The notes under the pieces: generated by a model
What the model was told of the DNA's origin: nothing
The model's input: only the letters and a program-made list of their open reading frames with translations
Database searches by the model: none
Shown here: piece by piece, positions 1-37,783 of the stretch
Layout: the number at the start of each line of letters is the position of its first letter
Position numbering within the stretch: position 1 is the stretch's first letter
IMG/VR virus record: IMGVR_UViG_2531839524_000011
Direction: 5' to 3' (one strand)
DNA length: 38,945 nucleotides
From: a virus
Lineage: Duplodnaviria; Heunggongvirae; Uroviricota; Caudoviricetes
Translations under genes and position numbers: made by a program

Positions 1-1005
1 TTAATCCCCCGTGGACACTGCGTGGACACTCACGCCACCTTTCAGCGGATTAAGGGCCACCGCATCCTGCAGGTAATCCGGTGCAAAATGTGCATATGCC
101 ATTGTTTGCTGAATGGTTGCGTGGCCAAGAATCTTCTGAAGCGCAATAATGTTTCCTCCGTTCATCACAAAATGGCTGGCGAACGTATGCCGCAGCACAT
201 GTGCAGCCTGGCCTTTTGGTAAATCGGGCTTAACTCTTTTCAGCGCCAAGCAGAATTCCCGGTACTTCACCTCAAACAAGCCGCCTGTTTCTCTGGTTTT
301 GATCGCCTCACAAACTGCCTGCGAAATTGGCACCGTTCTCTTTCGGCCATTTTTGGTTTCAAGAAACGTTACACGGTTATGAACTATCTGTTCACCACGA
401 AGCTTACAAGCTTCACTCCAGCGCGCCCCTGTGCTTAAACACAAAAGCGCAACACGCCAGTAGTCGCCATCCAGTGTATCGAGCAATAGCGCTACTTCCT
501 TCTGGGACAGGAAAGCCATTTCTCGCGGGGATACATAAAGAATGGAGATCCCCCTTACCGGATGTTCTGCATCCCAAAGGCCTATTCTTTTCAGAACAGT
601 AAACATGCCGGATAGTCGGTTCATGTACCTGTTAGCAGATGACGGTTTCAATCCAGCAGCTATCTTTTGAGAACGCCACGCGATAATTTTCAGCTTATCA
701 AGATCCACAGCCTGCATATCAGCGCCAAGCTCATTGATTATGTTGCACAGTTGTTTTCGGTCTTCTTCCGCCTTACGCCTGTGCTGGCCGTGATACATCC
801 ACCACAACTCAAGCAAATCATTTAGCGTTCGACGATCACGGTAGCCCTGTATATATTCCCGCTTTTCAGCGTTCGCCATGATGTAGCGTTCAGTGGCCAC
901 CGCTACCGATTTTTTGTCAAATACCTTACGCACGCGCTTTCCCTTGCGTCCGTTCGGCCTGATGTCCAGCAAATAACGACCATCTTCGAGCTTCTTAATC
1001 GACAT
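1..1005 (-). CDS. int: Phage integrase, tyrosine recombinase (P2 Int-like)
   Basis: 339-aa minus-strand ORF; C-terminal catalytic region HVLRHTFASHF...LGHATIQQTMAYAHF typical of tyrosine recombinases; N-terminus MSIKKLEDGRY; ATG at 1003..1005 preferred over the TTG at 1018..1020; position at prophage left end. Confidence 0.9.
   Translation of the reverse strand: MSIKKLEDGRYLLDIRPNGRKGKRVRKVFDKKSVAVATERYIMANAEKREYIQGYRDRRTLNDLLELWWMYHGQHRRKAEEDRKQLCNIINELGADMQAVDLDKLKIIAWRSQKIAAGLKPSSANRYMNRLSGMFTVLKRIGLWDAEHPVRGISILYVSPREMAFLSQKEVALLLDTLDGDYWRVALLCLSTGARWSEACKLRGEQIVHNRVTFLETKNGRKRTVPISQAVCEAIKTRETGGLFEVKYREFCLALKRVKPDLPKGQAAHVLRHTFASHFVMNGGNIIALQKILGHATIQQTMAYAHFAPDYLQDAVALNPLKGGVSVHAVSTGD
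11..29. repeat. Candidate attL core (direct repeat of 37764..37783), overlapping the int 3' end
   Basis: gtggacactgcgtggacac here versus tgtggtcactgcgtggacat at 37764..37783; shared cactgcgtggaca core. Confidence 0.35.
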
Positions 1006-1101
1006 CGCGAAGCCCTCCAATGAACCGCTCTACAATTTCTCCAGCCTCTTTCCAGCAATAATCAGACCAGACAAAAAGCAGGTCTAACCAGTTTTCTGGC
1101 C

Positions 1102-1422
1102 TCAGCGGGGTAATTTTTGTTTTGTTTCGGTTGAACTCTGATCGCCCTCCAAACTGGAGAAGCCATCAAGAGAGAGAGCCGGAGAAATTTGCCCAACCTC
1201 CGGCATCGTTTCATCTGTTGATAACCAATAAGCATACTTCTTAAATTTTGGGTGTTTCGTAACCTTAAGTAAGGCCCCCTCTGTTACTTGCTTCCCCCTC
1301 ACCTCATAGTTAGTTACCGTCCCATAAGGCAGCCCAACACAATCCGCAAACTCCTGGCGGGTCATACCTTCTGCTTCACGAATCAGGCGAAATTTTTCCC
1401 CCATGCTTGACAAAGATGCCAT
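1102..1422 (-). CDS. C: Immunity repressor, P2 C-type (HTH)
   Basis: Translation ...FADCVGLPYGTVTNYEVRGKQ...KHPKFKKYAYWLSTDETMPEVGQISPALS matches my recollection of P2 C; divergent from cox; start at ATG 1420..1422 (MASLSSMGEKF) preferred over upstream in-frame ATGs. Confidence 0.8.
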   Translation of the reverse strand: MASLSSMGEKFRLIREAEGMTRQEFADCVGLPYGTVTNYEVRGKQVTEGALLKVTKHPKFKKYAYWLSTDETMPEVGQISPALSLDGFSSLEGDQSSTETKQKLPR

Positions 1423-1536
1423 ATCGGGCATATCCTCCATCACAAACATGCCACATCGGGCACATACATAAAAAAGCTCAAATAAGCCTATATAAGCCAT
1501 TTTGAGCCATTCGAACGAATTAAGGAGATTACCACA
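1423..1536. promoter_or_regulatory. Lysis/lysogeny switch region: divergent repressor and early promoters with operators (inferred)
   Basis: Intergenic between divergent C (-) and cox (+); contains short direct repeats (agccatt twice); assignment by position only. Confidence 0.45.
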
Positions 1537-1824
1537 ATGAGCGAATCAGAGCTTGAGGGGTTCATTCAGGTAGCACCATATCCACTTGAAGCGGTGCCAT
1601 ATCAACTATTTGCCAAGATGATTGGTCGCAAAGAATCAACCGTCAGAACCATGATTGACGCTGCAAAGTTACCAACAATTGACTTTGTAAAACCAGGTTC
1701 AGTGAAGACGCGAGCATCAGAAAACTGGGTATATCTGCCAGCATTTAACGCAGGTATGCGCAAAGCATTTTTTGATCAGCCGAAAGAGCGCCGCGACGCA
1801 TGGTTGCTCTGGCTGGGTCTTTGA
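1537..1824 (+). CDS. cox: Cox-like excisionase / early-promoter regulator
   Basis: 95 aa; VPYQLFAKMIGRKESTVRTMID...NWVYLPAFNAGMRKAF...RRDAWLLWLGL resembles P2 Cox as I recall it; first gene of the rightward early operon. Confidence 0.85.
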   Translation: MSESELEGFIQVAPYPLEAVPYQLFAKMIGRKESTVRTMIDAAKLPTIDFVKPGSVKTRASENWVYLPAFNAGMRKAFFDQPKERRDAWLLWLGL

Positions 1825-1835
1825 CGAGGATTTTT

Positions 1836-2177
1836 ATGAGACAACAACGTAATTCACGCTTTCGCAATGGCGCAGAACGCCATGCTAACCGTTTCGCTAC
1901 CAGCGCATCACGTAGCAGCTCTCGCTACAGCCTGAGCGAAACACACGCAACGCCGGATGGCTACCCCGTAAAACAAATCGGCGAACACGCCTGGCTGATT
2001 GAGAAAGCTGGAATCGTGGTCCACAAATGCCCGCGTAATCCGTTTACCGGAAGCCGCATTTTTGCCCTGAGCAGCGGCGACAATCAGTTCGGACAGGATT
2101 TCACATTATACGAAGCACTACGCACGGTTGATCGTCTGCTTCGCGGGCAAAGTTTTATTAAACAGGCTGATTTATAA
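1836..2177 (+). CDS. Hypothetical early protein
   Basis: ORF with ATG at 1836 (MRQQRNSRF...); early-operon position; no recognisable motif. Confidence 0.45.
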   Translation: MRQQRNSRFRNGAERHANRFATSASRSSSRYSLSETHATPDGYPVKQIGEHAWLIEKAGIVVHKCPRNPFTGSRIFALSSGDNQFGQDFTLYEALRTVDRLLRGQSFIKQADL

Positions 2178-2187
2178 CAGGTGCTTT

Positions 2188-2475
2188 ATGACTAAAGACC
2201 ATGCACAAGGTGTATTTATCCGTTTTATTGATTTTCGCGGTGAACTGTTATTACGTGCATCCGCTATTGATGGAGTGACTACGGCGGGGAAAAACGGAGC
2301 CGACGAAGCCACTTACGTTTATCTGAACGGTACGCGACTGCTTGTGGAACTTCCGTACCAGACCGTACGAGAAATCATTAGCGAAGCTGAAAAGGCACGC
2401 CAGGTTCATGGCGATGAACCCTATATCGAAATTATTTGTATGGATTCAGAAGCTGAAATCCAGAAAGCAGATTAA
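2188..2475 (+). CDS. Hypothetical early protein
   Basis: 95-aa ORF from ATG 2188 (MTKDHAQGVF...); same-strand early operon. Confidence 0.5.
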   Translation: MTKDHAQGVFIRFIDFRGELLLRASAIDGVTTAGKNGADEATYVYLNGTRLLVELPYQTVREIISEAEKARQVHGDEPYIEIICMDSEAEIQKAD

Positions 2476-4849: not shown

Positions 4850-5185
4850 AGCAGTATCAGGATTTTTTAGTATGCCGTTCTCACAAAAAAACCGCTTGCC
4901 ATGCCGCAATCAGTCAGGTTACATTTCCGCTGCACCTCACAAAACGGGTGCCGGGTTTCGCAGCCTGCTGACTACACAAGCGCACAACCGCGCCAGCGGT
5001 TTTTTTGTGCGTACTGTATTGCCACGTTTTTTTCGCGTCAGAATTATGGCGGGGCGTACGGGGCCGACTTCGGTCGGGCCGGGTTCTTGTGTAGCCGGGA
5101 CTGCGAACCTCGTACGTCTCGCCACCCACAGTTTCGCAGCTCTGGATGGTGAGTTTTCACAACTTACTACACAAGGGGCCACACC
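4850..5185. other. GC-rich structured non-coding interval (candidate sRNA / regulatory or replication-associated element)
   Basis: No convincing ORF with an RBS; nested hairpins including gggccgac-ttcg-gtcgggcc enclosed by gcgtacg...cgtacgt (5054..5117); terminator-like ccgcgccagcggttttttt at about 4989..5007; direct repeat actacacaag at 4970 and 5166. Confidence 0.3.
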
Positions 5186-5860: not shown

Positions 5861-8683
5861 ATGACGGCAGAGTACATCAGGGACTGGCAACAACCGCGCC
5901 ACGCAGTGGGGCGTGAAGGAACGGGGATCCCCACTCCTGAATCCGCGCTTTCCTCCTGGCTGGATGCCTACCGGGCAGAGAACGAGCGCCGCCAGGAAAT
6001 GGCTGATGCGGCGTTCTCCGCCACGCCGCTGGGCAACCTGATTAATAAAAGCCTGGACGCACAGGAAAAACAGGACAAAACCATCACACTGGCAGGAGAC
6101 GCCAGAAAGCAGGCACGCGGCGCGGTGGATGAAGCCATGGCCTCGCTGCGCCTGCTGCCGTCCTATCTGCGCGATCCGCTTATTCGCCACCTCTCCTTCC
6201 TGCGCAAAAAACAGGAATCTGACCGCCAGAAAGGTAAAAAGAACCAGCAGGCTGAACGCTACGCGCGCGGGACCCTGCGCAAAATATTCGAACGTCTGGA
6301 CCGCACCGACCACCGCTGGCTGACACCGGGTTATCGCGCCCTTGCCGGACGCGAACGCCTGGATGATTTGCTTTACCTCCCGCAGCTCAACAAGCACCAG
6401 ATACAGACGCTGGCCACCATGACGGCGGCGATGTTCAGCAGCACCTTCGAAAAACTCTGCGATGGCTTTGGCGCAACCGATGGCGAGCTGACCATGGATG
6501 TAACCCTGAAGGCGTATCAGATGCTGGCCCGCATGGCGTTACACCTGCACGCCATGCCTCCACATTATGACGCACTGACAACAGACAAAGACCGGAGGAA
6601 CGAACCGGACACGGAGCTGCTGCCGGGCGCAATCCTTCGCCTGACCTGTGCGGAATGGTGGAAACGCAAACTGTGGCTGTTACGTTGCGAGTGGAGAGAA
6701 GAACAACTCCGCGCCGCCTGTCTGGTTTCCAGAAAAACATCGCCCTATCTGAGCCAGGACGCGTTAAGCGAGTTTCGCGCACAGCGCGAGAAGACACGCG
6801 ATTTCCTGAAAAGTTTCATGCTGGAAAACGAAGACGGGTTCACGATTGATCTCGAGACAGTGTATTACGCGGGAGTAAGTAACCCGGTTCACCGTAAGGC
6901 AGAAATGATGGCCACCATGAAGGGACTGGAACTTCTGGCCGAAGCCCGTGGCGACAGAGCGGTGTTTCTGACTGTCACCTGCCCGTCAAAATACCACGCC
7001 ACAACAGAGAACGGTCATCCGAATCCCAAATGGAACGGGGCCACCATGCGCGACTCCAGCGATTACCTGGTTAACACGTTTTTTGCGGCTGTCCGCAAAA
7101 AACTGAACCGCGACGGTCTGCGCTGGTATGGCATCCGCACGGTGGAGCCTCACCATGACGGCACCGTGCACTGGCATATGATGGTCTTTGCTCATCCGGA
7201 AGAAATCGACACCATTGTGTCCCACACCCGCGATATTGCCATTCAGGAAGACCGCCACGAGCTGGGCGATGACATAACTCCGCGCTTTAAGGCGGAGTAC
7301 GTCGACGGCTCAAAAGGCACACCAACCAGCTACATCGCCACCTACATCGGAAAGAACCTGGACAGCCACGCCGTGGATGGCATCGACCCGAAAACGGGCA
7401 AGCCACGCGTTGACCACGAAACCGGAAAATCAATGGCCGAGAGCGTGGAGCGCGCCATCGGCTGGGCACGCCTTCACCGGGTCCGCCAGTTCCAGTTCTT
7501 TGGCATTCCCTCCCGTCAGGTGTGGCGTGAACTCCGCCGCCTTGCCAGCCAGATAGCACGCAACCCGGAAGGCCCGCAACGGCTGAAGGATGATGCAATG
7601 GATGCGGTACTCGCTGCCGCTGATGCCGGATGTTTTGCCACCTACATTGAAAAACAGGGCGGCGTACTTGTTCCACGCAAGGACTACCTGATTCGCACCG
7701 CCTACGACCTCGCCGATGAGCTGAACGATTACGGCGAACAGAGCGTACAGATTTACGGGATCTGGTCACCACTCATCGGGGAATCCTCCCGTGTGTGCAC
7801 GCATCCGGATAACTGGAAGCTGGTAAGACGCAAACCGGAAGCGAAAGACAGCGCCCGCGAAAATGGTTTTGACCTTCAGGGCGGCCCTGCCGCCCCTTGG
7901 ACTCGTGGCAATAACTGTCCCCGTGTACAGGAAACGGACAACAACGGGACAGAACAGCCGGAAGAACGGCCAGCACCGTGGCCGCAGCTTCCTGACGGCG
8001 TTGACGTGAATGAATGGATGCGCTCACTGAAACGGCACGAACGCCGGGCGCTGATGCGTTCGCTGCGTGACAAACAGGCAAAAAACAGCAGTGATGAGAT
8101 GCAGAGCTGGACACAGAGCCGCAAACAGCCGCGGCCTTTGCCTGATAACCACGAATTACTCGCTAAAGAATGGCGGGAGTCTGCTGAATCTCTCGGCCTG
8201 CATATCGGTGAACAGCAAATGCAGCACCTGTTACGGGGCGGCAGTCTGTACGTTGACGGCAGCATCATTGCACCGCAGGGATTTGAAATTGTACGCAAAC
8301 CGGATACCCGCCCGGACAGCCGAATCACGCAGCTCTGGCTGCGCCTGAGCCGTAATCACGGCGTAAGCAGCACGGAGATCCGCCATAACCCGGTCGCCAG
8401 TTATCTGGAACAGCTAGGGGCATCAGCCCCCGAAGCCGCCGCACGCCTGGCATCCACACTTCAGCAAGACCAGAACACCATGAAAACACCCGTTACCGTG
8501 CTTTCTGACATGCTGCGCGCCATCCGCGACGCAGAGCACGCGCAGAGAATCAGTGAAACTGCTGAACGCGCCCGCCGCAAAGCAGACCTGCTGCGGGGTG
8601 GCCTGACCAGCGGAAACAAAAAACAGACAGAAACGGGATTCACAAATCCCGTAAATGAGCAAAAAACGCGCCGCGATATATGA
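5861..8683 (+). CDS. A: Rolling-circle replication initiator (P2 gpA-like HUH endonuclease)
   Basis: 940 aa; HUH motif in GTVHWHMMVFAHPEE and paired catalytic tyrosines in TPTSYIATYIGKN, as in P2 A / phiX174 A-type initiators; position after the early genes. Confidence 0.9.
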   Translation: MTAEYIRDWQQPRHAVGREGTGIPTPESALSSWLDAYRAENERRQEMADAAFSATPLGNLINKSLDAQEKQDKTITLAGDARKQARGAVDEAMASLRLLPSYLRDPLIRHLSFLRKKQESDRQKGKKNQQAERYARGTLRKIFERLDRTDHRWLTPGYRALAGRERLDDLLYLPQLNKHQIQTLATMTAAMFSSTFEKLCDGFGATDGELTMDVTLKAYQMLARMALHLHAMPPHYDALTTDKDRRNEPDTELLPGAILRLTCAEWWKRKLWLLRCEWREEQLRAACLVSRKTSPYLSQDALSEFRAQREKTRDFLKSFMLENEDGFTIDLETVYYAGVSNPVHRKAEMMATMKGLELLAEARGDRAVFLTVTCPSKYHATTENGHPNPKWNGATMRDSSDYLVNTFFAAVRKKLNRDGLRWYGIRTVEPHHDGTVHWHMMVFAHPEEIDTIVSHTRDIAIQEDRHELGDDITPRFKAEYVDGSKGTPTSYIATYIGKNLDSHAVDGIDPKTGKPRVDHETGKSMAESVERAIGWARLHRVRQFQFFGIPSRQVWRELRRLASQIARNPEGPQRLKDDAMDAVLAAADAGCFATYIEKQGGVLVPRKDYLIRTAYDLADELNDYGEQSVQIYGIWSPLIGESSRVCTHPDNWKLVRRKPEAKDSARENGFDLQGGPAAPWTRGNNCPRVQETDNNGTEQPEERPAPWPQLPDGVDVNEWMRSLKRHERRALMRSLRDKQAKNSSDEMQSWTQSRKQPRPLPDNHELLAKEWRESAESLGLHIGEQQMQHLLRGGSLYVDGSIIAPQGFEIVRKPDTRPDSRITQLWLRLSRNHGVSSTEIRHNPVASYLEQLGASAPEAAARLASTLQQDQNTMKTPVTVLSDMLRAIRDAEHAQRISETAERARRKADLLRGGLTSGNKKQTETGFTNPVNEQKTRRDI

Positions 8684-8759: not shown

Positions 8760-9719
8760 ATGAAAATTTGTATCGACGACGGCTCCACCAACATCAAGCT
8801 GGCATGGACTGAGAACGGCGAACGCCGCAACGCCATCAGCCCGAACAGCTTCAAGTCGGAATGGTCTGCGCCGTTCGGCGGCACGCAGCCCGCGAACTAC
8901 ATGCTTGATGGCGTGCGCTATGGTTTTGATCCGGTCAGCGATCGCTTTGTCCAGACGACCGACACGCAATACCAGTACAGCGATGTGAATGTCATTGCCA
9001 TTCATCACGCGCTGGTCAAATCAGGCATCACGCCACAGGAGGTGGATGTGGTTGTCACCCTGCCACTGAGCGAGTATTTCGACACAAACGCACAGCCGGA
9101 CATGGCCAACATCAACCGCAAAAAAGCGAACGTTATGCGCCCGGTGGAGTACCAGAACGGCGAAGCATTCACTATCCGTAACGTGCGGGTTATGCCTGAA
9201 TCCATTCCGGCTGGCTTTAAGGCACTGGCTGACATGAGTCCGTTTGAATCCCTGCTGATTGTGGATTTGGGCGGAACCACGCTGGATGTGGCAAAGGTTC
9301 AGGGGCAACTGGCAGGTATCAGCCAGGTGTTTTGCGATCCACACGTAGGCGTTTCCCTGATGGCCGATGCCGTACTGTCGGTGATGGCCACTAACGGTAT
9401 GCGTACCAGTCACCACATCGCCAATACCATTATCGAACATCGCCATGATGAAGCCTGGCTGCGCCAGCACATCCACAATGACGCGCATTACGCCAGCCTG
9501 ATGGCGGTTATTCGTGAAAAGGAAGAAACACTGAAACAACGCGTGATCCGCGCGCTGGCGGTTTTTTCGGGTTACGGGCGGGTGATGGTTGTCGGTGGCG
9601 GGGCGGAGATTGTGGCACCCGCTATCCGCGAAGCCTGCGGAGTTAATGCGACTTTCATCGCGGATGGGGTGCCACAGTTTGCTCTGGTTAATGGGCTGTA
9701 CGCAATGGACAAGGAGTAA
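8760..9719 (+). CDS. parM: ParM/StbA-like actin-family partition ATPase
   Basis: 319 aa; MKICIDDGSTNIKLAW, YSDVNVIAIHHAL, MPESIPAG, LIVDLGGTTLD and VMVVGGGAE match the plasmid R1 ParM (StbA) signature blocks as I recall them. Confidence 0.85.
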   Translation: MKICIDDGSTNIKLAWTENGERRNAISPNSFKSEWSAPFGGTQPANYMLDGVRYGFDPVSDRFVQTTDTQYQYSDVNVIAIHHALVKSGITPQEVDVVVTLPLSEYFDTNAQPDMANINRKKANVMRPVEYQNGEAFTIRNVRVMPESIPAGFKALADMSPFESLLIVDLGGTTLDVAKVQGQLAGISQVFCDPHVGVSLMADAVLSVMATNGMRTSHHIANTIIEHRHDEAWLRQHIHNDAHYASLMAVIREKEETLKQRVIRALAVFSGYGRVMVVGGGAEIVAPAIREACGVNATFIADGVPQFALVNGLYAMDKE

Positions 9720-10164: not shown

Positions 10165-10689
10165 TTATGAAAAATAATCATCATGAGAGGAAACATGCAA
10201 ATTATAATCACTCAATTGGGGAATAATCCCCCTACTCCAAAGCAACGTTTTATTTAGTCCAAGTCCATCTAATTTCATCATCCTGTTGCGCAGCGCAATG
10301 AACTCATTCTTGAAGTTATCTGCAGAGATGATTTTTGGGCAAAAACAAGAATACAATTTTCTGTTACTTACGCCACAAGCATTGGCAAGCTCATCCTCAA
10401 AATTGCTTGTTTGTTGAAATAGGTGGATTGTGTGTTTTTTCGCCTTTAATAGATTTAGGTTATTCTTAAATCTACCAAGATTCTCAATCCTATCCGTATC
10501 AAAAACCACTATAATTTCGCTATTTTCGGTTAATGCTGGCATGTATTTATTTATATTAACATTCCATAAATTAGCAATTACTATTTTCTTAATAGGATAG
10601 CCTAGCAATGTTTTGAAATCCTGAAACAATGCTTTTTCCGTATCTCCCTCAACGAGAATGATAGCAAATTTCTTAACTGCCATAATCAA
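10165..10689 (-). CDS. TOPRIM-domain protein (OLD-family C-terminal-half-like / AriB-like), 174 aa
   Basis: N-terminal ILVEGDTEK conserved glutamate followed by IIVVFDTD (DxD), the TOPRIM metal-binding signature; start overlaps the ATPase stop (ATGA); very AT-rich. Confidence 0.6.
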   Translation of the reverse strand: MIMAVKKFAIILVEGDTEKALFQDFKTLLGYPIKKIVIANLWNVNINKYMPALTENSEIIVVFDTDRIENLGRFKNNLNLLKAKKHTIHLFQQTSNFEDELANACGVSNRKLYSCFCPKIISADNFKNEFIALRNRMMKLDGLGLNKTLLWSRGIIPQLSDYNLHVSSHDDYFS

Positions 10690-11885
10690 TCCTCAAATAG
10701 CATCTCTTCGATTAATGAAACGTCAGGTATTGTTGCAAAACAGTCATTTTTTACTTTATTTAAAAGATTGCGATCATTCTTTTTATGATGTGTGGTAGCT
10801 TCAACAAAAGTGGTTAAACCATCTACTTTTTTAGTAAAAGTATATGAATGCGTAGGCAGATCTAAGCTCAAGATATCATAATTATGTGTGGTGTATATAA
10901 ATTGACCATACCTGCAAAGCTTAGATATAATCAGTGTGACCATCATTTTTTCTAATTCAGTATGAGTGAAGGCCATTTTCTCATCCAAAAAGTACACCCC
11001 ACTGCAAGGGAAATTGAACTCACGCTCTTCTATTTTATCTTCAAGCACTCCTGACAGGAGATGGGATATTTTTACTGCCTCATAAGTACCACGAGACAGT
11101 CTATCTTTATTTGTTATATCACCTTCCATATCAATAATAACTCTATCTCCATTATTGAAGACTACTGAATACCCCTGCAAATCCTCCTTTCCCTCATCAT
11201 CTTTAAGAGTGAGTCCTGAGACAGATTTAACAGTATTGTCAAAAGTTTTTAATATGCTATTAAGCACATTCTTCTTAATTCGGGATATTTTATCCGTGTT
11301 CTCTTGGTTTTCAGATAGAATGAAATGCCAACCAAGAACAAAGTCCAAATCCTCTAAATATTGGGAAAATTCTTTTGAGTTAGCGTTTTCAGTTGAAAAA
11401 AATCTATTTTGACCATTTAATTCAAACTTTTGCGCATCCCACACAGCATCCAATCTTTTGGTCGTCTTTGCGCATGATTCCGAGCTTCTTAAATCAACAG
11501 ATGCCATTGCAATTTTTTCTACAACAACAGACTCATCCATAGCCCTAAGCCAGAAACCTGCCCTAAACAAACATTTTAAATGACTCTGGAAAAAGTCAAC
11601 CTCTATATATGCAGGTTTTCTTTTGTCAGTAATTTTTAACGGTTCTGGATTAAAAACACCACTACTGAGAAAACGCAACACAGAAAGCATCACGCGACCA
11701 AGAGATGTTTTACCAGATGCATTAGCACCAGAAACGATGCAAACCTTTTTGAAGTAGAATTTTTCAAATCCATCAATGTACTCACCTTCCAGTGAGCTGT
11801 TGACCGGGGGTCTGGAGAAGCTTAAGTCAAGGATGCTATTTTCAAAGCAAAAAAGATTATCGATTCTGATTTTTGTAAAAGCCAT
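10686..11885 (-). CDS. ABC/SMC-type ATPase (OLD-family N-terminal-half-like / AriA-like), 399 aa
   Basis: Walker A GANASGKTS; ABC-signature-like LSRGTYEAV; Walker B VYFLDE; H-loop IYTTHN; AT-rich island located in the P2 tin/old slot between A/par and portal Q. Confidence 0.75.
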   Translation of the reverse strand: MAFTKIRIDNLFCFENSILDLSFSRPPVNSSLEGEYIDGFEKFYFKKVCIVSGANASGKTSLGRVMLSVLRFLSSGVFNPEPLKITDKRKPAYIEVDFFQSHLKCLFRAGFWLRAMDESVVVEKIAMASVDLRSSESCAKTTKRLDAVWDAQKFELNGQNRFFSTENANSKEFSQYLEDLDFVLGWHFILSENQENTDKISRIKKNVLNSILKTFDNTVKSVSGLTLKDDEGKEDLQGYSVVFNNGDRVIIDMEGDITNKDRLSRGTYEAVKISHLLSGVLEDKIEEREFNFPCSGVYFLDEKMAFTHTELEKMMVTLIISKLCRYGQFIYTTHNYDILSLDLPTHSYTFTKKVDGLTTFVEATTHHKKNDRNLLNKVKNDCFATIPDVSLIEEMLFED

Positions 11886-23631: not shown

Positions 23632-26055
23632 ATGAGTACCACAACACGAAAATTTAAAACCGTTATCACCGATACGGGTGCAAAAAAATTAGCTCAGGCA
23701 GCCGCGCCAGATGGTAAGCCAGTCCGCCTGACTCATATGGCCGTGGGCGACGGTGGCGGCACGTTGCCCACACCAGACAGTAAGCAGACCCGTCTGGTGC
23801 ATGAGGTGTGGCGACACACTGTTAATCGCGTCATCCTGGACGCAACACATCAGAACCGCATTATTGCGGAGCTGGTTATTCCTCCTGAAACGGGCGGATT
23901 CTGGATCCGGGAAATTGGTGTATTTGATGAGCACGGCGATTTAATCGCGGTGGGCAATACTGCCGAAAGTTACAAGCCAGCCGTTGCCGAAGGGTCCGGT
24001 CGTGCACAAACGTTTCGCACCATTCTGACCGTATCCAGCACTGCCACCGTGGCGCTTACCGTGGATAACACCATGGTGATGGCCACAGTGGATTACGTGG
24101 ATGACAAACTGAAAGAGCATGAACGGTCACGACGTCACCCGGACGCCTCGCTGACCGCAAAAGGCTTTGTTCAACTCAGTAGCGCCACTAACAGCGTGTC
24201 TGAAACGCAGGCTGCAACGCCGAAAGCAGTAAAGGCAGCATATGACCTGGCTAATGGCAAATACACCGCACAGGACGCTACCACTGCGCGGAAAGGGATA
24301 GTTCAGCTCAGTAGCGCCACCAACAGCACGTCTGAAACGCAGGCTGCAACGCCGAAAGCAGTAAAGACCGCGTATGATCTTGCTAACGGTAAATATACTG
24401 CGCAGGATGCCAGCACGACGCGAAAAGGCCTTGTCCAGCTCAGTAGCGCCACCAACAGCACGTCTGAAGCGCAGGCTGCAACGCCGAAAGCAGTAAAGGC
24501 CGCGTATGACCTTGCTAACGCAAAATATACCGCTCAGGACGCCACGACGGCACAAAAAGGGATAGTCCAGCTCAGTAGTGCCACCAACAGCACGTCTGAA
24601 ACACTGGCCGCGACACCAAAAGCGGTTAAGGCGGTAATAGATGAAACGAACAAGAAAGCGCCCTTAAACAGCCCGGCGCTGACCGGAACGCCAACAACAC
24701 CAACTGCGCGACAGGGAACGAATAATACCCAAATCGCAAGCACGGCTTTCGTTATGGCTGCGATTGCCGCACTTGTAGACTCGTCGCCTGACGCACTGAA
24801 TACGCTGAACGAGCTGGCGGCGGCGCTGGGAAACGACCCGAATTTTGCGACCACCATGACTAACGCGCTTGCGGGTAAGCAACCGAAAGATGCCCCCCTG
24901 ACGGCGCTGGCCGGGCTTGCTACTGCGGCAGACAGGTTTCCGTATTTTACGGGGAATGATGTCGCCAGCCTGGCAACCCTGACAAAAGTCGGGCGGGATA
25001 TTCTTGCGAAATCGACCGTTGCCGCTGTTATCGAATACCTCGGTTTACAGGAAACGGTAAATCAGGCTTCTGGCGCATTACAGAAAAAACAGAACGGCGC
25101 AGATATTCCCGATAAAAAACTATTCCTGCGTAATATCGGCACAACAAATTCAACAACCATGTCTTTTAGTGGTGGTGCTGGATGGTTCAAACTGGCAACT
25201 GTAACAATGCCACAAGCCAGTTCCGTGGTTTACATAAGCCTGATTGGTGGCGCAGGGTATAACGTTGGCTCCTCGCATCAAGCAGGCATCTCTGAGCTGG
25301 TTCTGCGTGCCGGAAATGGGAATCCAAAAGGTATTACTGGTGCATTATGGCGACGGACATCGGTTGGATTTACTAATTTTGCATGGGTGAATACATCCGG
25401 TAATACCTATGATGTTTATGTTGAAATAGGTAATTACGCCACAGGTGTTAATATTCAGTGGGATTATACCAGTAACGCCAGCGTAACGATTCATACATCA
25501 CCAACTTATACAGCGAATAAACCAACAGGCCTGACAGATGGAACTGTATATGTAATTTACAGTTCGCACATTAAACCGACTGCTGCTGAGGTTGGGGCGT
25601 TGTCATTATCTGGCGGTCAATTGAATGGTGCACTGGGCATCGGAACATCCAGTGCTCTTGGCGGTAACTCGATTGTTTTGGGTGATAATGACACGGGATT
25701 TAAACAAAATGGCGACGGGTATCTGGATGTTTATGCTAATAACGTCCATGTTATGCGCTTTGTCTCCGGCAGCATTCAAAGTAATAAAACCATAAATATT
25801 ACAGGGCGTGTTAACCCCTCGGATTACGGTAACTTTGATTCTCGTTATGTGAAAGATGTTCGACTTGGTTCACAGCAATATTATGGAGTGAACAACTGGC
25901 AAACATGGAATTTCCAGTGCCCTTCAGGTCATGTATTGTCTGGTATTAATGTTCAGGATACAGGTTCCAACTCTGCCGATAATATAGCGGGCGTTTATTA
26001 CAGACCCGTCCAAAAGTATATAAATGGCACCTGGTATAATGTAGCGAGCGTTTAA
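23632..26055 (+). CDS. H: Tail fibre protein (P2 gpH-like), current-orientation C-terminus
   Basis: 807 aa; four tandem 44-aa fibre repeats ([20 protein letters not shown]...); the gix crossover site lies in-frame at 25028..25053. Confidence 0.9.
24161..24690 (+). repeat. Tandem 132-bp (44-aa) repeats, about four copies, inside H
   Basis: Repeat units begin near 24161, 24293, 24425 and 24557 ([44 protein letters not shown]). Confidence 0.7.
25028..25053. other. gix/cix/hix-type 26-bp inversion crossover site (left)
   Basis: ttatcgaatacctcggtttacaggaa; 24/26 identity to the reverse complement of the right site; the inverted homology extends about 56 bp further into the segment. Confidence 0.7.
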
Positions 26056-26056
26056 T

Positions 26057-26584
26057 ATGATGCACTTAAAGAACATAAAAGCGGGTAACGCTAAAACACT
26101 GGAACAGTATGAGTTAACAAAGAAACACGGAGTTATCTGGCTTTACTCTGAGGACGGAAAAAACTGGTATGAGGAAGTGAAAAACTTTCAGCCAGACACA
26201 ATAAAGATTGTTTACGATGCAAATAATATTATTGTCGCCATCACCAAAGATGCATCCACGCTTAATCCCGAAGGTTTTAGCGTTGTCGAGGTTCCAGATA
26301 TTACAGCCAACCGCCGCGCTGATGATTCAGGAAAGTGGATGTTTAAGGACGGAGCTGTGGTTAAGCGGATTTATACGGCAGACGAACAGCAACAACAGGC
26401 CGAATCACAAAAGGCCGCATTGCTTTCCGAAGCTGAATCAGTCACCCAGCCACTGGAACGCGCTGCCAGGCTGAATATGGCAACAGACGAGGAGCGCACA
26501 CGACTGGAAGCATGGGAACGCTACAGTGTTCTGGTCAGCCGTGTGGATACAGCAAAGCCCGAATGGCCACAAAAGCCTGAATAA
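26057..26584 (+). CDS. G: Tail fibre assembly chaperone (P2 gpG-like)
   Basis: 175 aa directly after H; paralogous to the minus-strand 26613..27146 ORF (both begin MMHLKNI...AGN.KT.EQY.LTK). Confidence 0.8.
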
Positions 26585-26612
26585 AAATTAAGGCCCGCTA
26601 TCGGGCCTTGTC

Positions 26613-27146
26613 TCATTCAGGTTGTTCGGGAAATGTTACTGGCAGGCTGGAGGGGTCTGTGGATTCGACTTTCTGCGCATAGAGCATCCACTCGGTTAAT
26701 TTTTGTTTATTCTCGTCGGAAATGATGCCCAGCCGTAGCTGTGAGTCCCATAGCTGGGTTTTATCCCTGACAAGTTGCAACAGGCTTTGCTTTTCATTCT
26801 CTGCCTGCTGCCTCTGTTCCTCCCCGGTATAAGTTCGCTTTATCACCACGCCATCTTTGAACATCCATTTACCCGAAATATCAGCCCGGCGATTTGCTGT
26901 AATATCAGGTAATTCAACGACGCTTGCGCCTTCTGGGTTAATTGCTGAAACATCCTTTTCAATACAAATAATAACGCCGTTATGGTCATAGGCCATTTTC
27001 AATGTGTCTGGCCGGAAATTCTTTTGTTCCTCATACCAGTTTTTTCCATCATCTGAATAAAGCCATTTGATGTTAAATTGCTTTGTTAGCTGGTATTGCT
27101 CTTTTGTTTTAGGATTGCCAGCAGTAATGTTTTTTAAGTGCATCAT
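26613..27146 (-). CDS. Alternative tail fibre assembly chaperone (G'), used after inversion
   Basis: 177 aa paralogue of G on the opposite strand inside the invertible segment. Confidence 0.8.
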   Translation of the reverse strand: MMHLKNITAGNPKTKEQYQLTKQFNIKWLYSDDGKNWYEEQKNFRPDTLKMAYDHNGVIICIEKDVSAINPEGASVVELPDITANRRADISGKWMFKDGVVIKRTYTGEEQRQQAENEKQSLLQLVRDKTQLWDSQLRLGIISDENKQKLTEWMLYAQKVESTDPSSLPVTFPEQPE

Positions 27147-27148
27147 AA

Positions 27149-28093
27149 TTAAATACTCCCCGCGTTATACCACGTTCCATTAATGCAATACTGAACTGGC
27201 CTTGCCTGTGTTGTATCAATTAATTCATCACGGTTTCCGTTAACTGAACCCGTAACGACATAACCTGACCTGTCAGACCAGCCGGGACCATTCCATGTCT
27301 GAACAGATGACAGACCGCCCAGACGAATACCTGTAATAAACTTTGAGTTACATTCCGCTTTGGTATATGCACCAACATCCCCCGCAGAGGGCTTGTAGGT
27401 TGTGGTGTAAAACGCTGACCAGTTATCTTCAAAGCCATAACCATCACGCGCTGAACGATAAAGGATACCGCCGTTCCTGTAATTCACACGGAACTGTACG
27501 GCAGGGCAACTCCCCGTATTCATATTGAAGTGGAGTATTAATGCTGTTGCGCCTTTGATATCTGCATCATAAACACCGCTATTCCAGTTCCAGCCAACAG
27601 CTTTATCATTTGCAACCCTGCTTCCTGTCTGCCCTAAAGCAAATGCAGGCTGCTGGTTTTTCGTGTTGTAGTCTCGTCGCCAGCCAGGAGCATAAGCATC
27701 ACCATGATTAATATAGGTGAATTGAGCGTTAGTAATTCCGCCGCCGCTGGACGTGCTCGGCGTGGTAACGCGTATGGTCATTGCGCCGCGAGTGCCAATA
27801 ACTTCCACCACAGCACCTGCAAGACAAATATTTCCGCAACCTGTATCTGTAATGACCTTATTATTTGCATAAGCCCATGAGCCTTTGCACATCCAGTAAG
27901 GATGGTTAAATGCCCCCTGACTCTCCAGCCACGAAATGAATTGTGCGGTTGTCCAGGCCTGACTATCGCCACCAATATTCAGCCATGCGCTATATGCGCG
28001 GCAGGCACCAATATTTTTGGTGAAGGTATCTTTTCCCGGAATATCTGCGCCGTTCTGTTTTTTCTGTAATGCGCCAGAAGCCTGATTTACCGT
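27149..28093 (-). CDS. Alternative tail fibre C-terminal segment (H'), has no start of its own; fuses to H after inversion
   Basis: The minus-strand frame is open from the right gix site (reads [15 protein letters not shown], identical to H at the left site) through ...WMCKGSWAYANN... to the stop at 27149. Confidence 0.7.
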   Translation of the reverse strand, partial: TVNQASGALQKKQNGADIPGKDTFTKNIGACRAYSAWLNIGGDSQAWTTAQFISWLESQGAFNHPYWMCKGSWAYANNKVITDTGCGNICLAGAVVEVIGTRGAMTIRVTTPSTSSGGGITNAQFTYINHGDAYAPGWRRDYNTKNQQPAFALGQTGSRVANDKAVGWNWNSGVYDADIKGATALILHFNMNTGSCPAVQFRVNYRNGGILYRSARDGYGFEDNWSAFYTTTYKPSAGDVGAYTKAECNSKFITGIRLGGLSSVQTWNGPGWSDRSGYVVTGSVNGNRDELIDTTQARPVQYCINGTWYNAGSI

Positions 28094-28119
28094 TTCCTGT
28101 AAACCGAGGTTTTAGATAA
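28094..28119. other. gix/cix/hix-type 26-bp inversion crossover site (right)
   Basis: ttcctgtaaaccgaggttttagataa, reverse complement ttatctaaaacctcggtttacaggaa, the classic Gin/Hin/Cin crossover consensus. Confidence 0.75.
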
Positions 28120-28173
28120 TGGCCGTTTCTGGCCTGCATGGCATGATTTGCGCTTTTGGACGGGAGATTCAGT

Positions 28174-28761
28174 GTGCTGATTGGCTATGTAAGGGTATCA
28201 ACAAATGACCAGAATACAGACCTGCAACGAAACGCTCTTGTTTGTGCAGGATGTGAACAAATATTTGAAGATAAATTAAGCGGGACAAAGACAGACCGAC
28301 CGGGATTAAAACGCGCTTTAAAGCGCCTTCAACAAGGTGACACGCTGGTTGTCTGGAAACTGGATCGCCTCGGGCGAAGCATGAAACATCTGATTTCTCT
28401 CGTCGGGGAACTACGGGAGCGAGGGATTAATTTTCGCAGTCTGACCGACAGCATAGATACATCTTCTCCAATGGGGCGTTTTTTCTTCCACGTGATGGGT
28501 GCCCTGGCTGAAATGGAACGTGAATTAATTGTAGAGCGTACACTGGCCGGTCTGGCAGCAGCACGCGCACAAGGACGCACAGGCGGACGTCGCCCGAAGC
28601 TGACAAAAGAACAGAATGAGCAAATAGCAAGGCTGATTAAAAACGGGCACGACAGAAAACAACTGGCAATAATTTACGGCATTGGTACATCGACGATTTA
28701 TCGTTACCACCCCGCAGGAGAATCAAGCGGAACAATTGAGAAGAGTCAGGAAACAAAATAA
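28174..28761 (+). CDS. gin: Serine DNA invertase, Gin/Hin/Cin/Pin family
   Basis: LIGYVRVSTNDQNTDLQRNAL...GDTLVVWKLDRLGRSMKHLISLVGELRERGINFRSLTDSIDTSSPMGRFFFHVMGALAEMERELI is near-identical to Mu Gin as recalled; GTG start at 28174 (TTG at 28156 possible). Confidence 0.9.
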   Translation: MLIGYVRVSTNDQNTDLQRNALVCAGCEQIFEDKLSGTKTDRPGLKRALKRLQQGDTLVVWKLDRLGRSMKHLISLVGELRERGINFRSLTDSIDTSSPMGRFFFHVMGALAEMERELIVERTLAGLAAARAQGRTGGRRPKLTKEQNEQIARLIKNGHDRKQLAIIYGIGTSTIYRYHPAGESSGTIEKSQETK

Positions 28762-34529: not shown

Positions 34530-35639
34530 ATGACCGACACCACCATGCAATTGCTCAGTCAGAGCACAGACCCCGTGAAAATGCCGGATTTTGATATTCT
34601 CGCGGAGGGGGAAACGCTGTCCGGCGTGGCAGAGCGCCTGATGAGTCTGTCACTGACCGACAACCGGGGATTTGAAGCGGACCAGCTCACCATCACGCTG
34701 GATGATGCGGATGGTCAGTTGCAGCTACCGCCACGGGGCGCGCGCCTGACGGTTCTCATTGGCTGGAAAGGAGAACCGCTGACAGAAAAAGGCACTTACA
34801 TTGTTGATGAAATCGCTCACGAAGGACCGCCGGACAGGCTGACGGTTTCAGCCAGAAGCGCAGATTTTCGGGATGAATTTAACGTTAAACGTGAGGTGTC
34901 CTGGCATGATGTGACCGTTGAGCGAGTGGTATCCGCCATCGCTCATCGGTACGGTCTGAAACCGCAAATCAGCGAAATGCTGATGGATATCGAAATCGAC
35001 CACGCCGACCAGACCGAAGAAAGTGACATGTCCTTCCTTACGCGCATGGCGGAAATGCTGGGCGCAATCACTACGGTAAAAAGCGGTAATCTGTTATTCA
35101 TCATGCCAGGTGGTGGCGTGAACGCACTGGGCCAGCCGTTGCCATCGTTCGCCATCACACGCAGCAGCGGCGATCGCCATCAGTTCCGCATTGCTGACCG
35201 CGAAGCGTATACGGGGGTACGCGCTTACTGGCTTGATCTTAATTACGGGAAAAAGAAAAAAGTCAGCGTGAAACGCCGCAAACCGCCAAAACCCAAAAAG
35301 GAGAAAAGCAGCAGCCGTGAAGGTGATTATATGGAAGGCGCAGAAGGCAATGTGTTTGTGTTACGCAAGACTTATCAGAACGAGCAGGCAGCAAGACGCG
35401 CAGCAGCGGCAAAATGGCAGCAGCTACAACGCGGAGCCGCATCATTCTCCATCACGCTGGCGCGTGGACGCGCAGAACTCTATCCCGAAATGCATGGCAC
35501 GGTGAAAGGCTTCAAAAGTGACATCGACAATCAGGACTGGATTATTGCAAAAGCTGAGCACACCATTGATAACAGCGGCTTTACCACACAGCTTGAGCTT
35601 GAGGCAAAAATCCCGGAATGGATAGCGGAAACAGAGTGA
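34530..35639 (+). CDS. D: Tail protein D (P2 gpD-like)
   Basis: ATG 34530 after agggaggga RBS; about 370 aa; position between FI and ogr. Confidence 0.85.
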   Translation: MTDTTMQLLSQSTDPVKMPDFDILAEGETLSGVAERLMSLSLTDNRGFEADQLTITLDDADGQLQLPPRGARLTVLIGWKGEPLTEKGTYIVDEIAHEGPPDRLTVSARSADFRDEFNVKREVSWHDVTVERVVSAIAHRYGLKPQISEMLMDIEIDHADQTEESDMSFLTRMAEMLGAITTVKSGNLLFIMPGGGVNALGQPLPSFAITRSSGDRHQFRIADREAYTGVRAYWLDLNYGKKKKVSVKRRKPPKPKKEKSSSREGDYMEGAEGNVFVLRKTYQNEQAARRAAAAKWQQLQRGAASFSITLARGRAELYPEMHGTVKGFKSDIDNQDWIIAKAEHTIDNSGFTTQLELEAKIPEWIAETE

Positions 35640-35681
35640 AGAACTTAGAATAGCGGCAGCACCACGTTAAGGGAGGTCGCT

Positions 35682-35942
35682 ATGTTCCGTTGTCCGCTTT
35701 GTGGCGCATCTGCCCGTATCCGCACCAGTCGTCCGGAAAATGATTCAAACACCGTGCGGCAAAAGTATTACCAGTGTAACAACCTGGAATGCGGCGTATG
35801 CTTCTCAACACTGGAAGCCTTCCATAAATTCACATCGAAACACGCCTCCGGCGTTCACTCATCAGAAGGTATTCCGTGGCATGAGCTGCCAGCTTCACAC
35901 AGGGGAAACAATCAGATGAGTTTGCCTTTACCTCAGAATTAA
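35682..35942 (+). CDS. ogr: Late-gene transcription activator (Ogr/Delta zinc-finger family)
   Basis: MFRCPLCGASARIRTSR...YYQCNNLECGVCFST has the Cys4 spacing of P2 Ogr; last gene of the P2 backbone. Confidence 0.8.
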   Translation: MFRCPLCGASARIRTSRPENDSNTVRQKYYQCNNLECGVCFSTLEAFHKFTSKHASGVHSSEGIPWHELPASHRGNNQMSLPLPQN

Positions 35943-36030
35943 CAGGCAGAATTGCCGGGGTAACAAAAAAGCGATAGATTACGTGCGGGTGCCTTTCGGC
36001 TGATGGTCGGAGGGAATACCCGAAGGCCAG

Positions 36031-36216
36031 ATGTGGAAGGGCCCCGAGTCAACTTTAACGTTAACCCGAGGCCCTAACCATCTACCCTTAGCAAGTGATA
36101 GGTTAGCGCCTCCCCGAAAAAGGAGCAAGCGCTATGTCGCAAAAATCGCTTACGGCCATCACGTTCTGCGTGACGGCAATCCTCATCATCTGGATGCTGC
36201 ACGGTTCGCTGTGTGA
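36031..36216 (+). CDS. Possible mok-like overlapping reading frame (modulator of hok translation)
   Basis: ORF in a different frame overlapping the 5' half of the hok-like CDS, as in hok/mok/sok loci; true start uncertain. Confidence 0.3.
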   Translation: MWKGPESTLTLTRGPNHLPLASDRLAPPRKRSKRYVAKIAYGHHVLRDGNPHHLDAARFAV

Positions 36217-36274
36217 AATACGGATGAGCTTCTGGGGAGCGGAGTTTGCGGCGTTCTTACAGTGTAAGCAGTAA
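36134..36274 (+). CDS. hok: Hok/Gef-family type I toxin (46 aa)
   Basis: MSQKSLTAITFCVTAILIIWMLHGSLCEIRMSFWGAEFAAFLQCKQ: single TM helix followed by the SLCEIR ... AAF motif shared with Hok/HokA as recalled; below the ORF-track cutoff. Confidence 0.7.
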   Translation: MSQKSLTAITFCVTAILIIWMLHGSLCEIRMSFWGAEFAAFLQCKQ

Positions 36275-36451
36275 GGAAACCGCGACGGGGGAGTAATCCC
36301 CCGTCAATCAGTTGCCAGGATAAGGTCGATAAGGCATCCTGTCTCACTCTATACCAGCTAATCAATTGACACATATCAATAAAAAGCCTGATAAAATCAA
36401 AATGTTTTGTTACAAATGTCAGCTAGTAGAGGGCCAAAGGAGGCAGATTAT

Positions 36452-36784
36452 ATGGCATTAATCAAATGTCCTGAATGCCAGAAAGAGGTGATCGATTCAG
36501 TATTGTCTTGCCCTGCTTGTGGCAAACAACTGAAAAATCTTAAACGCTCATTTTTTGGAGAACTCATTAAGTGTTTTTTTATATTATTTAATATTTTTAT
36601 AATCTACACGATTTGTATTGGGCTAAGAGAGGTGGGTGAAATAATAAACAACGCCACATCCGATGCCGAAAAAGCCGGTACAGTTATTGGTACGGGCTTA
36701 GGTTTAATTGCTATTGGAGGCTTATGGGTTATTGGCAATATCATTATCGGAAATTTAGTATTTCTTACTAAACCAAAGGGATAA
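36452..36784 (+). CDS. Zinc-ribbon membrane protein (110 aa)
   Basis: aaggagg RBS; CPECQ...CPACG zinc ribbon at the N-terminus followed by two hydrophobic helices; AT-rich. Confidence 0.5.
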   Translation: MALIKCPECQKEVIDSVLSCPACGKQLKNLKRSFFGELIKCFFILFNIFIIYTICIGLREVGEIINNATSDAEKAGTVIGTGLGLIAIGGLWVIGNIIIGNLVFLTKPKG

Positions 36785-36788
36785 CAAA

Positions 36789-37682
36789 ATGAAAAATGTG
36801 ATTATTTCTATAGGCGCATCATTTATATCAATTAGTGTGCTACCTGCTCACGCAGCAACTGAGCATAATAACTTTAAGTCATCACTCCAGTGCCGAGCAA
36901 TAGAAAATAATAAAGAAAGACTTTCTTGTTATGATAAGTCAATACAACCGACTCGAACGACAGTTGCTGAAAAATTCGAAAGCAGAGATCAATGCCCTGA
37001 TGAGAAAGATGATGACAGACGTTTATCTTGTTATGACCGTTTTTTTTCTCCAACATTTACTCCGCCTGTAAGCTCAAAATCTAAAGTGAAACAGCTAGTA
37101 ACAACAGAGACTCAGCAACCAAATCTTTCTGAGATATCTAAATGTCGAGCAGAAAACGATAAAGAAACTAGAGTAAACTGCTACGATAAACTATTTCCAC
37201 AGGAAAAAGCTACGCAATCTAAATCAAAATTAGAGAAAGCCACAGACTCAGGAAAATGGCACACATCCATTACTACATCGCCAATTGATGATTCGAAAAA
37301 TGTAATTTTATCGTTAGAAAGTGATGATTATATAAGAACTCCATTTGGAGAAGCGGTTACCCCTACTCTGTTTATAGCTTGCCGAGAAAAGAAAACCGAA
37401 GTATTTCTTAATTGGGATGTATATTTAGGCCTTGAACAAACCAGCATGCTGTATCGCCTTGATAAACAGAAAGCAGTTGAGCGAAACTGGCTAGTATCTA
37501 CAGATACAAAGGCTGTTTTTTATAAAGGCAATGACATTAACTTCATCAGAAAACTAGCCAACTCAAACAAAATGTATGCAAGAATAACCCCTTATAATGA
37601 AAGCCCTGTAAGTGCAACTTTCAATTTAAACGGCCTGTCAACCACGCTAAAACCGCTTCAAGAAGCCTGTAACTGGAAATAG
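36789..37682 (+). CDS. Secreted/periplasmic protein with three C-x8-R(L/V)xCYD(K/R) repeats
   Basis: Signal peptide MKNVIISIGASFISISVLPAHA; repeats CRAIENNKERLSCYDK, CPDEKDDDRRLSCYDR, CRAENDKETRVNCYDK; AT-rich. Confidence 0.55.
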   Translation: MKNVIISIGASFISISVLPAHAATEHNNFKSSLQCRAIENNKERLSCYDKSIQPTRTTVAEKFESRDQCPDEKDDDRRLSCYDRFFSPTFTPPVSSKSKVKQLVTTETQQPNLSEISKCRAENDKETRVNCYDKLFPQEKATQSKSKLEKATDSGKWHTSITTSPIDDSKNVILSLESDDYIRTPFGEAVTPTLFIACREKKTEVFLNWDVYLGLEQTSMLYRLDKQKAVERNWLVSTDTKAVFYKGNDINFIRKLANSNKMYARITPYNESPVSATFNLNGLSTTLKPLQEACNWK

Positions 37683-37712
37683 TATAAATCATGCGGCTAA
37701 GCCACAATCACA

Positions 37713-37750
37713 GATAACACAAAGCCCGTGAAAACGGGCTTTGTGTTATC
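37713..37750 (+). terminator. Perfect 16-bp stem-loop after the cargo operon
   Basis: gataacacaaagcccg-tgaaaa-cgggctttgtgttatc; no clear T-run, so possibly bidirectional or structural. Confidence 0.45.
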
Positions 37751-37763
37751 TATAACTCGAAAA

Positions 37764-37783
37764 TGTGGTCACTGCGTGGACAT
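37764..37783. repeat. Candidate attR core (direct repeat of 11..29)
   Basis: tgtggtcactgcgtggacat versus gtggacactgcgtggacac at the window start. Confidence 0.35.

Follow-up and report, generated by a model that had tools for sequence, protein, structure and literature searches.

A repeat near both ends of a P2-like prophage in pdxB corresponds to predicted integrase arm-type sites, separate from the att core

In phages with a lambda-type heterobivalent integrase, the arm sites of the N-terminal domain flank the core and, once the phage has integrated, lie at opposite ends of the prophage; in lambda itself they are P1/P2 and P'1-3. The arm/core logic of the locus described here is the same as in lambda, whereas the arm sequences are unrelated and each arm has two units. 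In the P2 record (NC_001895), an Int P arm, IHF, core, Cox and an Int P' arm overlapping the 3' end of int are annotated. The arm-site consensus of P2-type integrases is tgTGGaCa (PMC3448106; pdxB is not mentioned in that paper). In our literature search, the sole report found on pdxB as a phage att site was that on ΦSM, a phage nearly identical to the one analyzed here, for which the site at the 5' end of pdxB, the TTG start and the SD were published (Magaziner et al. 2019, PMC6456863). MG1655(ΦSM) lysogens were pyridoxine prototrophs and grew on minimal medium (PMC6456863).

The window, that is, the whole stretch of 38,945 nucleotides analyzed here (IMG/VR record IMGVR_UViG_2531839524_000011), is a P2-like prophage (Xuanwuvirus, ΦSM/P88-type), complete except for the attL junction, and its insertion site is in the first codons of pdxB (Table 1). 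As had been predicted, the window starts at the int stop codon on the minus strand, and attL lies outside. For the attL junction, we relied on close relatives (identity 99.1-99.6%), the best E. coli match being ATCC 43896 (99.6%), and on genomes encoding exactly this Int. The integrase showed 50% identity to P2 Int over 326 aa (E 1e-119), with the Pfam domains Int_N and Phage_integrase.

Table 1. Features of the prophage and of the adjoining host DNA (positions in the window).
Feature	Position	Strand	Remarks
int	1-1005	-	P2-type tyrosine integrase, 334 aa; stop codon 1-3
P' arm-type Int sites (predicted by homology)	11-29	+	two direct GTGGACAC units, 11 bp apart, in last int codons
cox	1537-1824	+	excisionase (recombination directionality factor), also switch repressor; 56% identity with P2 Cox; Pfam Phage_Cox
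ogr	35682-35942	+	late-gene activator, last core phage gene before cargo; RefSeq 'ogr/Delta-like zinc finger family protein' (ATCC 43896)
hok-family toxin gene	36134-36274	+	prophage cargo; Pfam HOK_GEF 4e-7
zinc-ribbon protein gene	36452-36784	+	AT-rich cargo; Pfam Zn_Ribbon_1, slightly under its cutoff
VasI/TagO-like protein gene	36789-37682	+	AT-rich cargo; Pfam VasI 1e-24
terminator-like hairpin	37712-37751	+	18-bp stem; directly upstream of P arm
P arm-type Int sites (predicted by homology)	37765-37783	+	GTGGTCA and GTGGACA, 11 bp apart
IHF-consensus site	37805-37817	+	TATCAAAAAGTTA; between P arm and core
att core, attR copy	37829-37848	+	TTTTCATCAACAAGGATTTT; pdxB codons 2-8 on minus strand
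orphaned pdxB GTG start and native pdxB/flk divergent promoter region	37849-37949		GTG at 37849-37851, minus strand
flk	37950-38945	+	host gene; RefSeq annotation; present in 5426/5426 E. coli genomes

The original prediction had taken a repeat of 19-20 bp near both window ends as the att core. Comparison with prophage-free genomes, the check proposed with that prediction, placed the junction elsewhere. Among 5426 E. coli genomes, those with an empty site align to the window only from 37829, 46 bp to the right of the repeat, and the repeat is therefore not the crossover core. Exactly 20 bp are common to attB (C43(DE3)), attL (ATCC 43896), with the core copy 183-202 bp to the left of the window start, and attR (the window). 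This core in the first pdxB codons contains ATCCTTGTTGATGAAAA, the 17-bp site reported for ΦSM, and the records of ΦSM and PhiR44_2 terminate at it. The identity between attP of the window and E. coli attB extends over 20 bp, and Lys2 is consequently kept. P88_4B11 has one difference in the core (CCTC instead of CATC), whereas P2 has the core AAAAAATAAGCCCGTGTAAGGGAGATT and another host target. In the empty site, the pdxB CDS begins at the GTG equivalent to that orphaned in the window. Insertion just upstream of flk, as first proposed, holds insofar as the prophage abuts flk (101 bp), but the gene hit is pdxB, in the 5' end of its coding sequence.

The repeat itself is real. Its first copy, GTGGACACTGCGTGGACAC, lies within the final int codons; the second, GTGGTCACTGCGTGGACAT, differs from it at 2 of 19 positions and spans 37765-37783, one base fewer than the predicted 37764-37783. 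When up to 3 mismatches were allowed, the window held just these two matches, against a mean of 0.01 in shuffles. Each copy is a tandem pair of direct GTGG(A/T)CA(C) units with a period of 11 bp, a structure that the original prediction had missed.

Very probably, the two copies are pairs of arm-type Int sites, P arm and P' arm, an assignment made by homology to P2. The predicted P' arm is near-identical to P2 GTGGACACTGTGTGGACAC, annotated as 'protein_bind Int P' arm', and the predicted P arm has its counterpart in GTGGTCAATGTGTGGACG, annotated as the P arm of P2, with which it aligns and shares the A-to-T variant of the first unit. Relative to the consensus tgTGGaCa, the units read tGTGGTCA and cGTGGACA in the P arm and cGTGGACA twice in the P' arm, so that at least two direct consensus repeats stand on each side of the core. 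The order and orientation are those of P2 attP: the P arm follows the hairpin and precedes the IHF site, the P' arm lies inside the 3' end of int, and the near-identical units GTGGTCA / GTGGACA recur with the 11-bp period. The N-terminal arm-binding domain of Int is also conserved (MSIKKLEDGRYLLDIRP), with Y11/D14/R16 in common with P2; these residues, which their spacing suggests are positions 16/19/21 of the alignment in PMC3448106, give the Y/D/R combination and not the W/E/Y of the 186 type.

It is worth noting that the repeats might instead be sites for a different protein, either Cox/RDF or a host factor, or be conserved for reasons apart from recombination, such as coding constraint on the Int C-terminus. 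The P' copy does sit in int codons, and the P2-type assignment is one by homology. The P copy, however, is non-coding and nevertheless conserved in the window, P88_4B11, Chuche and P2. Furthermore, since the 11-bp period shifts the reading frame, the two P' units being read as SVH and VST, the P' repeat exists at the level of the DNA, not of the peptide. The cox-boxes of P2 have the consensus TTAAA(G/C)NC(A/C) (PMC3936717), which is unlike GTGGACA, and the P2 record gives these positions to Int. We regard this alternative as improbable. Even less likelihood can be given to the repeat as att core, that is, a strand-exchange site duplicated at attL and attR, for which its place near both prophage ends, its constant orientation and its non-random occurrence might speak. 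Besides the position of the junction, the motif has no match in the unoccupied pdxB-flk locus with up to 5 mismatches allowed and is thus missing from attB. It does not form the phage/host boundary at both junctions, nor is it single in attP; both copies are internal to phage DNA in the contiguous genomes of the phages P88_4B11 and Chuche, where they lie about 250 bp apart around a different 20-bp core. The copies also differ at 2/19 positions, but the true core is identical at 20/20 positions in attL, attR and attB. Functionless chance similarity, which might be read from there being two copies only, one with 2 mismatches, is next to negligible given the 0.01 matches expected and the same paired motif at homologous positions of P2 attP.

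With the repeat read as arm-type sites, the circular attP would show the hairpin first, followed by the P arm (2 x GTGGWCA) and the IHF site; then would come the 20-bp core, a segment of about 190 bp with the replacement translation start of pdxB, the int stop and, within the 3' end of int, the P' arm (2 x GTGGACAC). P88_4B11 (981/981 nt, 93%) and Chuche both have this predicted attP as one uninterrupted stretch. We infer, by analogy with P2 and lambda, that the N-terminal domain of this heterobivalent tyrosine integrase binds the arm-type pairs, that Int, acting on DNA bent by IHF, links arm sites to core sites, and that strand exchange takes place inside the 20-bp core common to attP and attB. 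Integration would split attP and carry one arm pair to each prophage end, and it is because of this parting that the repeat would be visible near both ends.

The hairpin left of the P arm (-31.1 kcal/mol, z-score -9.3 on folding) has the position of the annotated rho-independent terminator of P2, four bases before the P2 P arm; it was not called by a simple terminator scan, and a T-run is absent. In phages with different cargo, homology starts about 8 bp left of the P arm. The IHF site agrees fully with WATCAANNNNTTR, to which the window has 3 exact matches in all, and lies within a stretch (AAATCCTTTTAT.TCAA) that aligns to the region of P2 annotated for IHF binding.

From the core to the P' arm the distance is 192 bp here, more than double the 86 bp of P2. 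Unlike in P2, cox-boxes of the P2 type were not found in this interval: the consensus gave one match with 1 mismatch and no enrichment. The long gap and the lack of cox-box enrichment suggest that the excisive complex may be organized otherwise than in P2. RefSeq names the cox product a 'Cox family DNA-binding protein'. As a candidate RDF box, TTTTCAG / CTGAAAA occurs three times in the interval, in both orientations; it is also frequent within int, and is unconvincing.

Integration strips pdxB of its GTG start and promoter, for which a phage-borne AAGGAG-N7-TTG substitutes in frame. This sequence lies outside the window, left of position 1. At attL, AAGGAG-N7-TTG on the phage side is in frame with pdxB and restores the full-length frame as a 385-aa PdxB starting MSETEKGL-KILVDENMPY. 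The sequence AAGGAG-N7-TTG TCA GAG ACT GAA AAA GGG TTA followed by the core was found in ATCC 43896, AR_0085, RIVM_C037791, Chuche, P88_4B11 and the exact-Int genomes. In all genomes encoding exactly this Int, int is followed by 158 nt and then the TTG-started 385-aa PdxB. ΦSM, to which the int end / attP side of the window is 98% identical, has the same phage-borne AAGGAG and in-frame TTG re-heading pdxB. In these lysogens, RefSeq/PGAP gives pdxB a product of 370 aa that is shortened at the N-terminus; the fusion of 385 aa with the TTG start is more likely than this annotated form.

A sigma-70 scan of the attL interval gave one weak match only, overlapping the TTG. The published promoter prediction for ΦSM (TTGCAA / TAAAGG) was not recovered by the scanner.

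As for the transcription of the re-headed gene, no intrinsic terminator was predicted between the int stop and pdxB, and the two genes are co-oriented. Because of these two facts, transcription of pdxB-usg-truA in the lysogen may come largely from read-through of the Pc-C-int lysogenic transcript. Synthesis of vitamin B6 would in that case be tied to the repressor state of the prophage and fall when Cox shuts Pc on induction, and the long core-to-P' interval would be a dedicated cassette for rescue and control of the host gene. We consider this proposal speculative and rather unlikely.

The region between ogr and the P arm holds about 1.7 kb of cargo, unlike in P2. The proposal that the hok gene and the two AT-rich genes belong to the prophage, which extends past ogr, was borne out. 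The hok gene is also found upstream of attP in P88_4B11 and Chuche, and the zinc-ribbon gene is contiguous with attP in P88_4B11. The product of the VasI/TagO-like gene is a 'type VI secretion system-associated protein TagO' in RefSeq; Chuche has Com and a DNA methyltransferase in its place. The cargo of this ogr-attP hotspot differs among relatives.

The boundary described here is an ordinary P2-like prophage boundary, already described for ΦSM (PMC6456863). For annotation, it matters that a near-perfect end repeat in P2-like prophages can represent Int arm sites instead of the att core; if the repeat is taken as core, the right boundary is displaced here by 46-65 bp and the left one by about 190 bp. 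The target, pdxB, is conditionally essential, and the phage inserts in its 5' end and provides it with new signals for translation, namely a ribosome-binding site and a start codon, as already published.

A repeat at the two ends of the prophage had been proposed as its att core. The repeat itself was confirmed. Its two copies were the sole matches at up to 3 mismatches on both strands of the 38.9 kb, while a mean of only 0.01 matches was expected from dinucleotide-preserving shuffles, so the repeat is genuine rather than a chance match. The window opens with TTA, the int stop codon read on the opposite strand. Each copy is made up of two direct GTGG(A/T)CA(C) units with 11-bp spacing, a feature absent from the original prediction.

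The junctions with the host chromosome were located elsewhere. The right end (651 nt, 37650-38300) was compared with 5426 complete E. coli genomes; all 5426 gave a match, but coverage reached at least 80% in only 303, and the int end (1-1100) was found in 308. In the prophage-free genomes among the matches listed, the alignment started at query base 180, corresponding to window position 37829, and the features beneath these matches were flk and pdxB. The empty locus of C43(DE3) (truA-usg-pdxB / flk-yfcJ-fabB; pdxB of 1137 nt) as attB, the lysogen ATCC 43896 as attL and the window as attR were then compared base by base. ATCC 43896, which shares 99.1-99.6% identity with the window, carries pdxB, about 200 bp and int on the left side and ogr-hok-Zn ribbon-TagO-flk on the right side. 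The attL was identical to attB up to ...CATATTTTCATCAACAAGGATTTT and the attR from TTTTCATCAACAAGGATTTT on. These limits define a 20-bp common core, TTTTCATCAACAAGGATTTT. The repeat was rejected as the att core, since the host match starts only at 37829, to the right of the repeat, and the repeat motif was missing from the empty-site locus at up to 5 mismatches. The rest of the earlier interpretation held: the prophage extends past ogr, hok and the two AT-rich genes are its cargo, and the insertion lies beside flk. The flk gene begins at 37950, 101 bp away from the core.

Positions of the features discussed (P2 positions are from the P2 reference annotation, NC_001895; L001 is the attL-side locus of ATCC 43896)
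Feature	Sequence	Position	Strand	Remarks
Repeat copy 1, GTGGACACTGCGTGGACAC	Window	11-29		Within int 3' end
Repeat copy 2, GTGGTCACTGCGTGGACAT	Window	37765-37783		Matches copy 1 at 17/19
Core, attR copy	Window	37829-37848
Core, attL copy	L001	2299-2318		183-202 bp left of window position 1
IHF consensus, exact, TATCAAAAAGTTA	Window	37805-37817
Hairpin, 18-bp stem	Window	37712-37751		-31.1 kcal/mol, z -9.3; position of P2 terminator
Terminator	P2	24265-24288
Int P arm	P2	24293-24320
IHF site	P2	24324-24357
Int core	P2	24356-24383
Cox region	P2	24399-24472
int stop	P2	24462
Int P' arm	P2	24470-24496
isrK	Window	4932-5006	+	Rfam 64 bits
C4 antisense RNA	Window	5042-5129	+	Rfam 78 bits
ParM/StbA ATPase	Window	8760-9719	+	Pfam StbA_N 1.8e-82, ParM C-terminal 6e-69
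Candidate AbiL-like system	Window	10165-11885	-	Two genes
OLD-like TOPRIM / AbiLii protein	Window	10165-10689	-	Weak match, 6.5e-5
AbiLi-like AAA ATPase	Window	10686-11885	-	PADLOC 7.6e-28
Probable invertible tail-fibre segment	Window	26051-28761
Tail-fibre assembly gene	Window	26613-27146
Alternative tail-fibre C-terminal ORF	Window	27149-27892		Opposite orientation
Hin/Gin-type serine invertase	Window	28156-28761		Resolvase 2e-50

Comparison with P2 showed what the repeat is. The P arm reads GTGGTCAatgtGTGGACG in P2 and GTGGTCActgcGTGGACA in the window, and the P' arm GTGGACActgtGTGGACAC and GTGGACActgcGTGGACAC, respectively. The stretch from the P arm to the IHF site can be aligned among P2, the window, P88_4B11 and Chuche (ATGTGGTCA..TG.GTGGAC...AAATCCTTTTAT.TCAA), and this four-way alignment breaks down at the core. 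Window Int and P2 Int share 50% identity; their N-terminal domains are well conserved and have Y11/D14/R16 in common, and the two Cox proteins are 56% identical. The core-to-P' distance, however, is 192 bp in the window prophage and 86 bp in P2. The units of the P' arm are read in different frames (S-V-H and V-S-T), which indicates that the repeat is maintained at the DNA level rather than the peptide level. We conclude that the repeat represents the P and P' arm-type Int sites, binding of Int and IHF being predicted from homology. Integration would part the two arm sites, one to each prophage end.

A predicted attP was assembled by joining the right end of the window, including the core, to 182 bp taken from ATCC 43896 and then to the left end of the window. 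Escherichia virus P88_4B11 contains this attP without a break (981/981 nt, 93%), and so does phage Chuche, starting at the P arm; for Citrobacter phage Shae_phiSM (98.1%) and PhiR44_2 (99.1%), the record stops at the core. Since the homology of Chuche to the window restarts some 8 bp to the left of the repeat in the P arm, the repeat is the conserved element lying farthest out in attP. The attP core of P88_4B11 (L004 ~2870-2895) is TTTTCCTCAACAAGGATTTT, with CCTC instead of CATC, one change from the E. coli attB and window core; this may be a trace left by a host carrying a variant pdxB.

P2-type cox-boxes were not enriched in the core-to-P' interval. Three occurrences of TTTTCAG / CTGAAAA, in both orientations, and an inverted repeat, ATACTGAA-N9-TTCAGTAT, lie in the stretch from the core to the int stop (L001 2290-2500, on the attL side beyond the window). 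As P2 cox-boxes are absent, these elements may be binding sites for the Cox of the window phage, but the TTTTCAG heptamer is also common within int.

The interval from ogr to the P arm (window 35943-37760; locus L007 150-1540) is a variable cargo hotspot. In the window and P88_4B11 it holds hok, a zinc-ribbon gene and a VasI/TagO-like gene (Pfam VasI 1e-24); in Chuche, hok is accompanied by Com and a DNA methyltransferase, which replace the latter two. Several other genes were observed. The ParM/StbA actin-like segregation ATPase gene, unusual in an integrating P2-like phage, has the replication gene (5861-8683) on one side and the portal gene on the other. The candidate AbiL-like defence system occupies the 'old/tin' hotspot of P2. 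Long inverted repeats connect both tail-fibre assembly genes in what is probably an invertible segment. Two RNAs, isrK and C4, exceed their Rfam gathering scores in the early region.

On the pdxB strand, the core (AAA ATC CTT GTT GAT GAA AA) corresponds to pdxB codons 2-8 (GTG-KILVDEN...). The GTG start of pdxB (37849-37851, minus strand) and its native promoter are left at attR, beside flk. At attL, the phage supplies ...TAATAAAGGAGCCTTAGA TTG TCA GAG ACT GAA AAA GGG TTA, continuing in frame into the core, and the predicted N-terminus of the fused PdxB is MSETEKGL-KILVDENMPY.... An Int protein identical to that of the window is found in 914 indexed assembly blocks; at six of six places among the matches listed, a 385-aa 2-Hacid_dh (PdxB) gene starting at this phage TTG was found 158 nt after it. 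For pdxB in lysogens, PGAP gives 370 aa from Met9 and other gene callers 385 aa (L001 1185-2297; L011 2664-3821); the 385-aa calls begin at the TTG supplied by the phage, which has a consensus SD. No intrinsic terminator was predicted between int and pdxB.

The same target is known from ΦSM, a P2-like C. rodentium phage, whose integration site in E. coli K-12 was determined experimentally as 17 bp, ATCCTTGTTGATGAAAA, at the pdxB 5' end (Magaziner et al. 2019, J Bacteriol 201:e00638-18; PMC6456863). ΦSM supplies a TTG in the pdxB reading frame, an AAGGAG SD and a predicted promoter, and its lysogens grow on minimal medium (PMC6456863). Our literature search for pdxB as an att site found no other paper. 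ΦSM and the window prophage are close relatives sharing the integration site; the only small difference is the attP/attB identity, 20 bp here and 17 bp as reported for ΦSM. The arm repeat belongs to the ordinary machinery of P2-type site-specific recombination, which has been described before, and the integration site is a published one.
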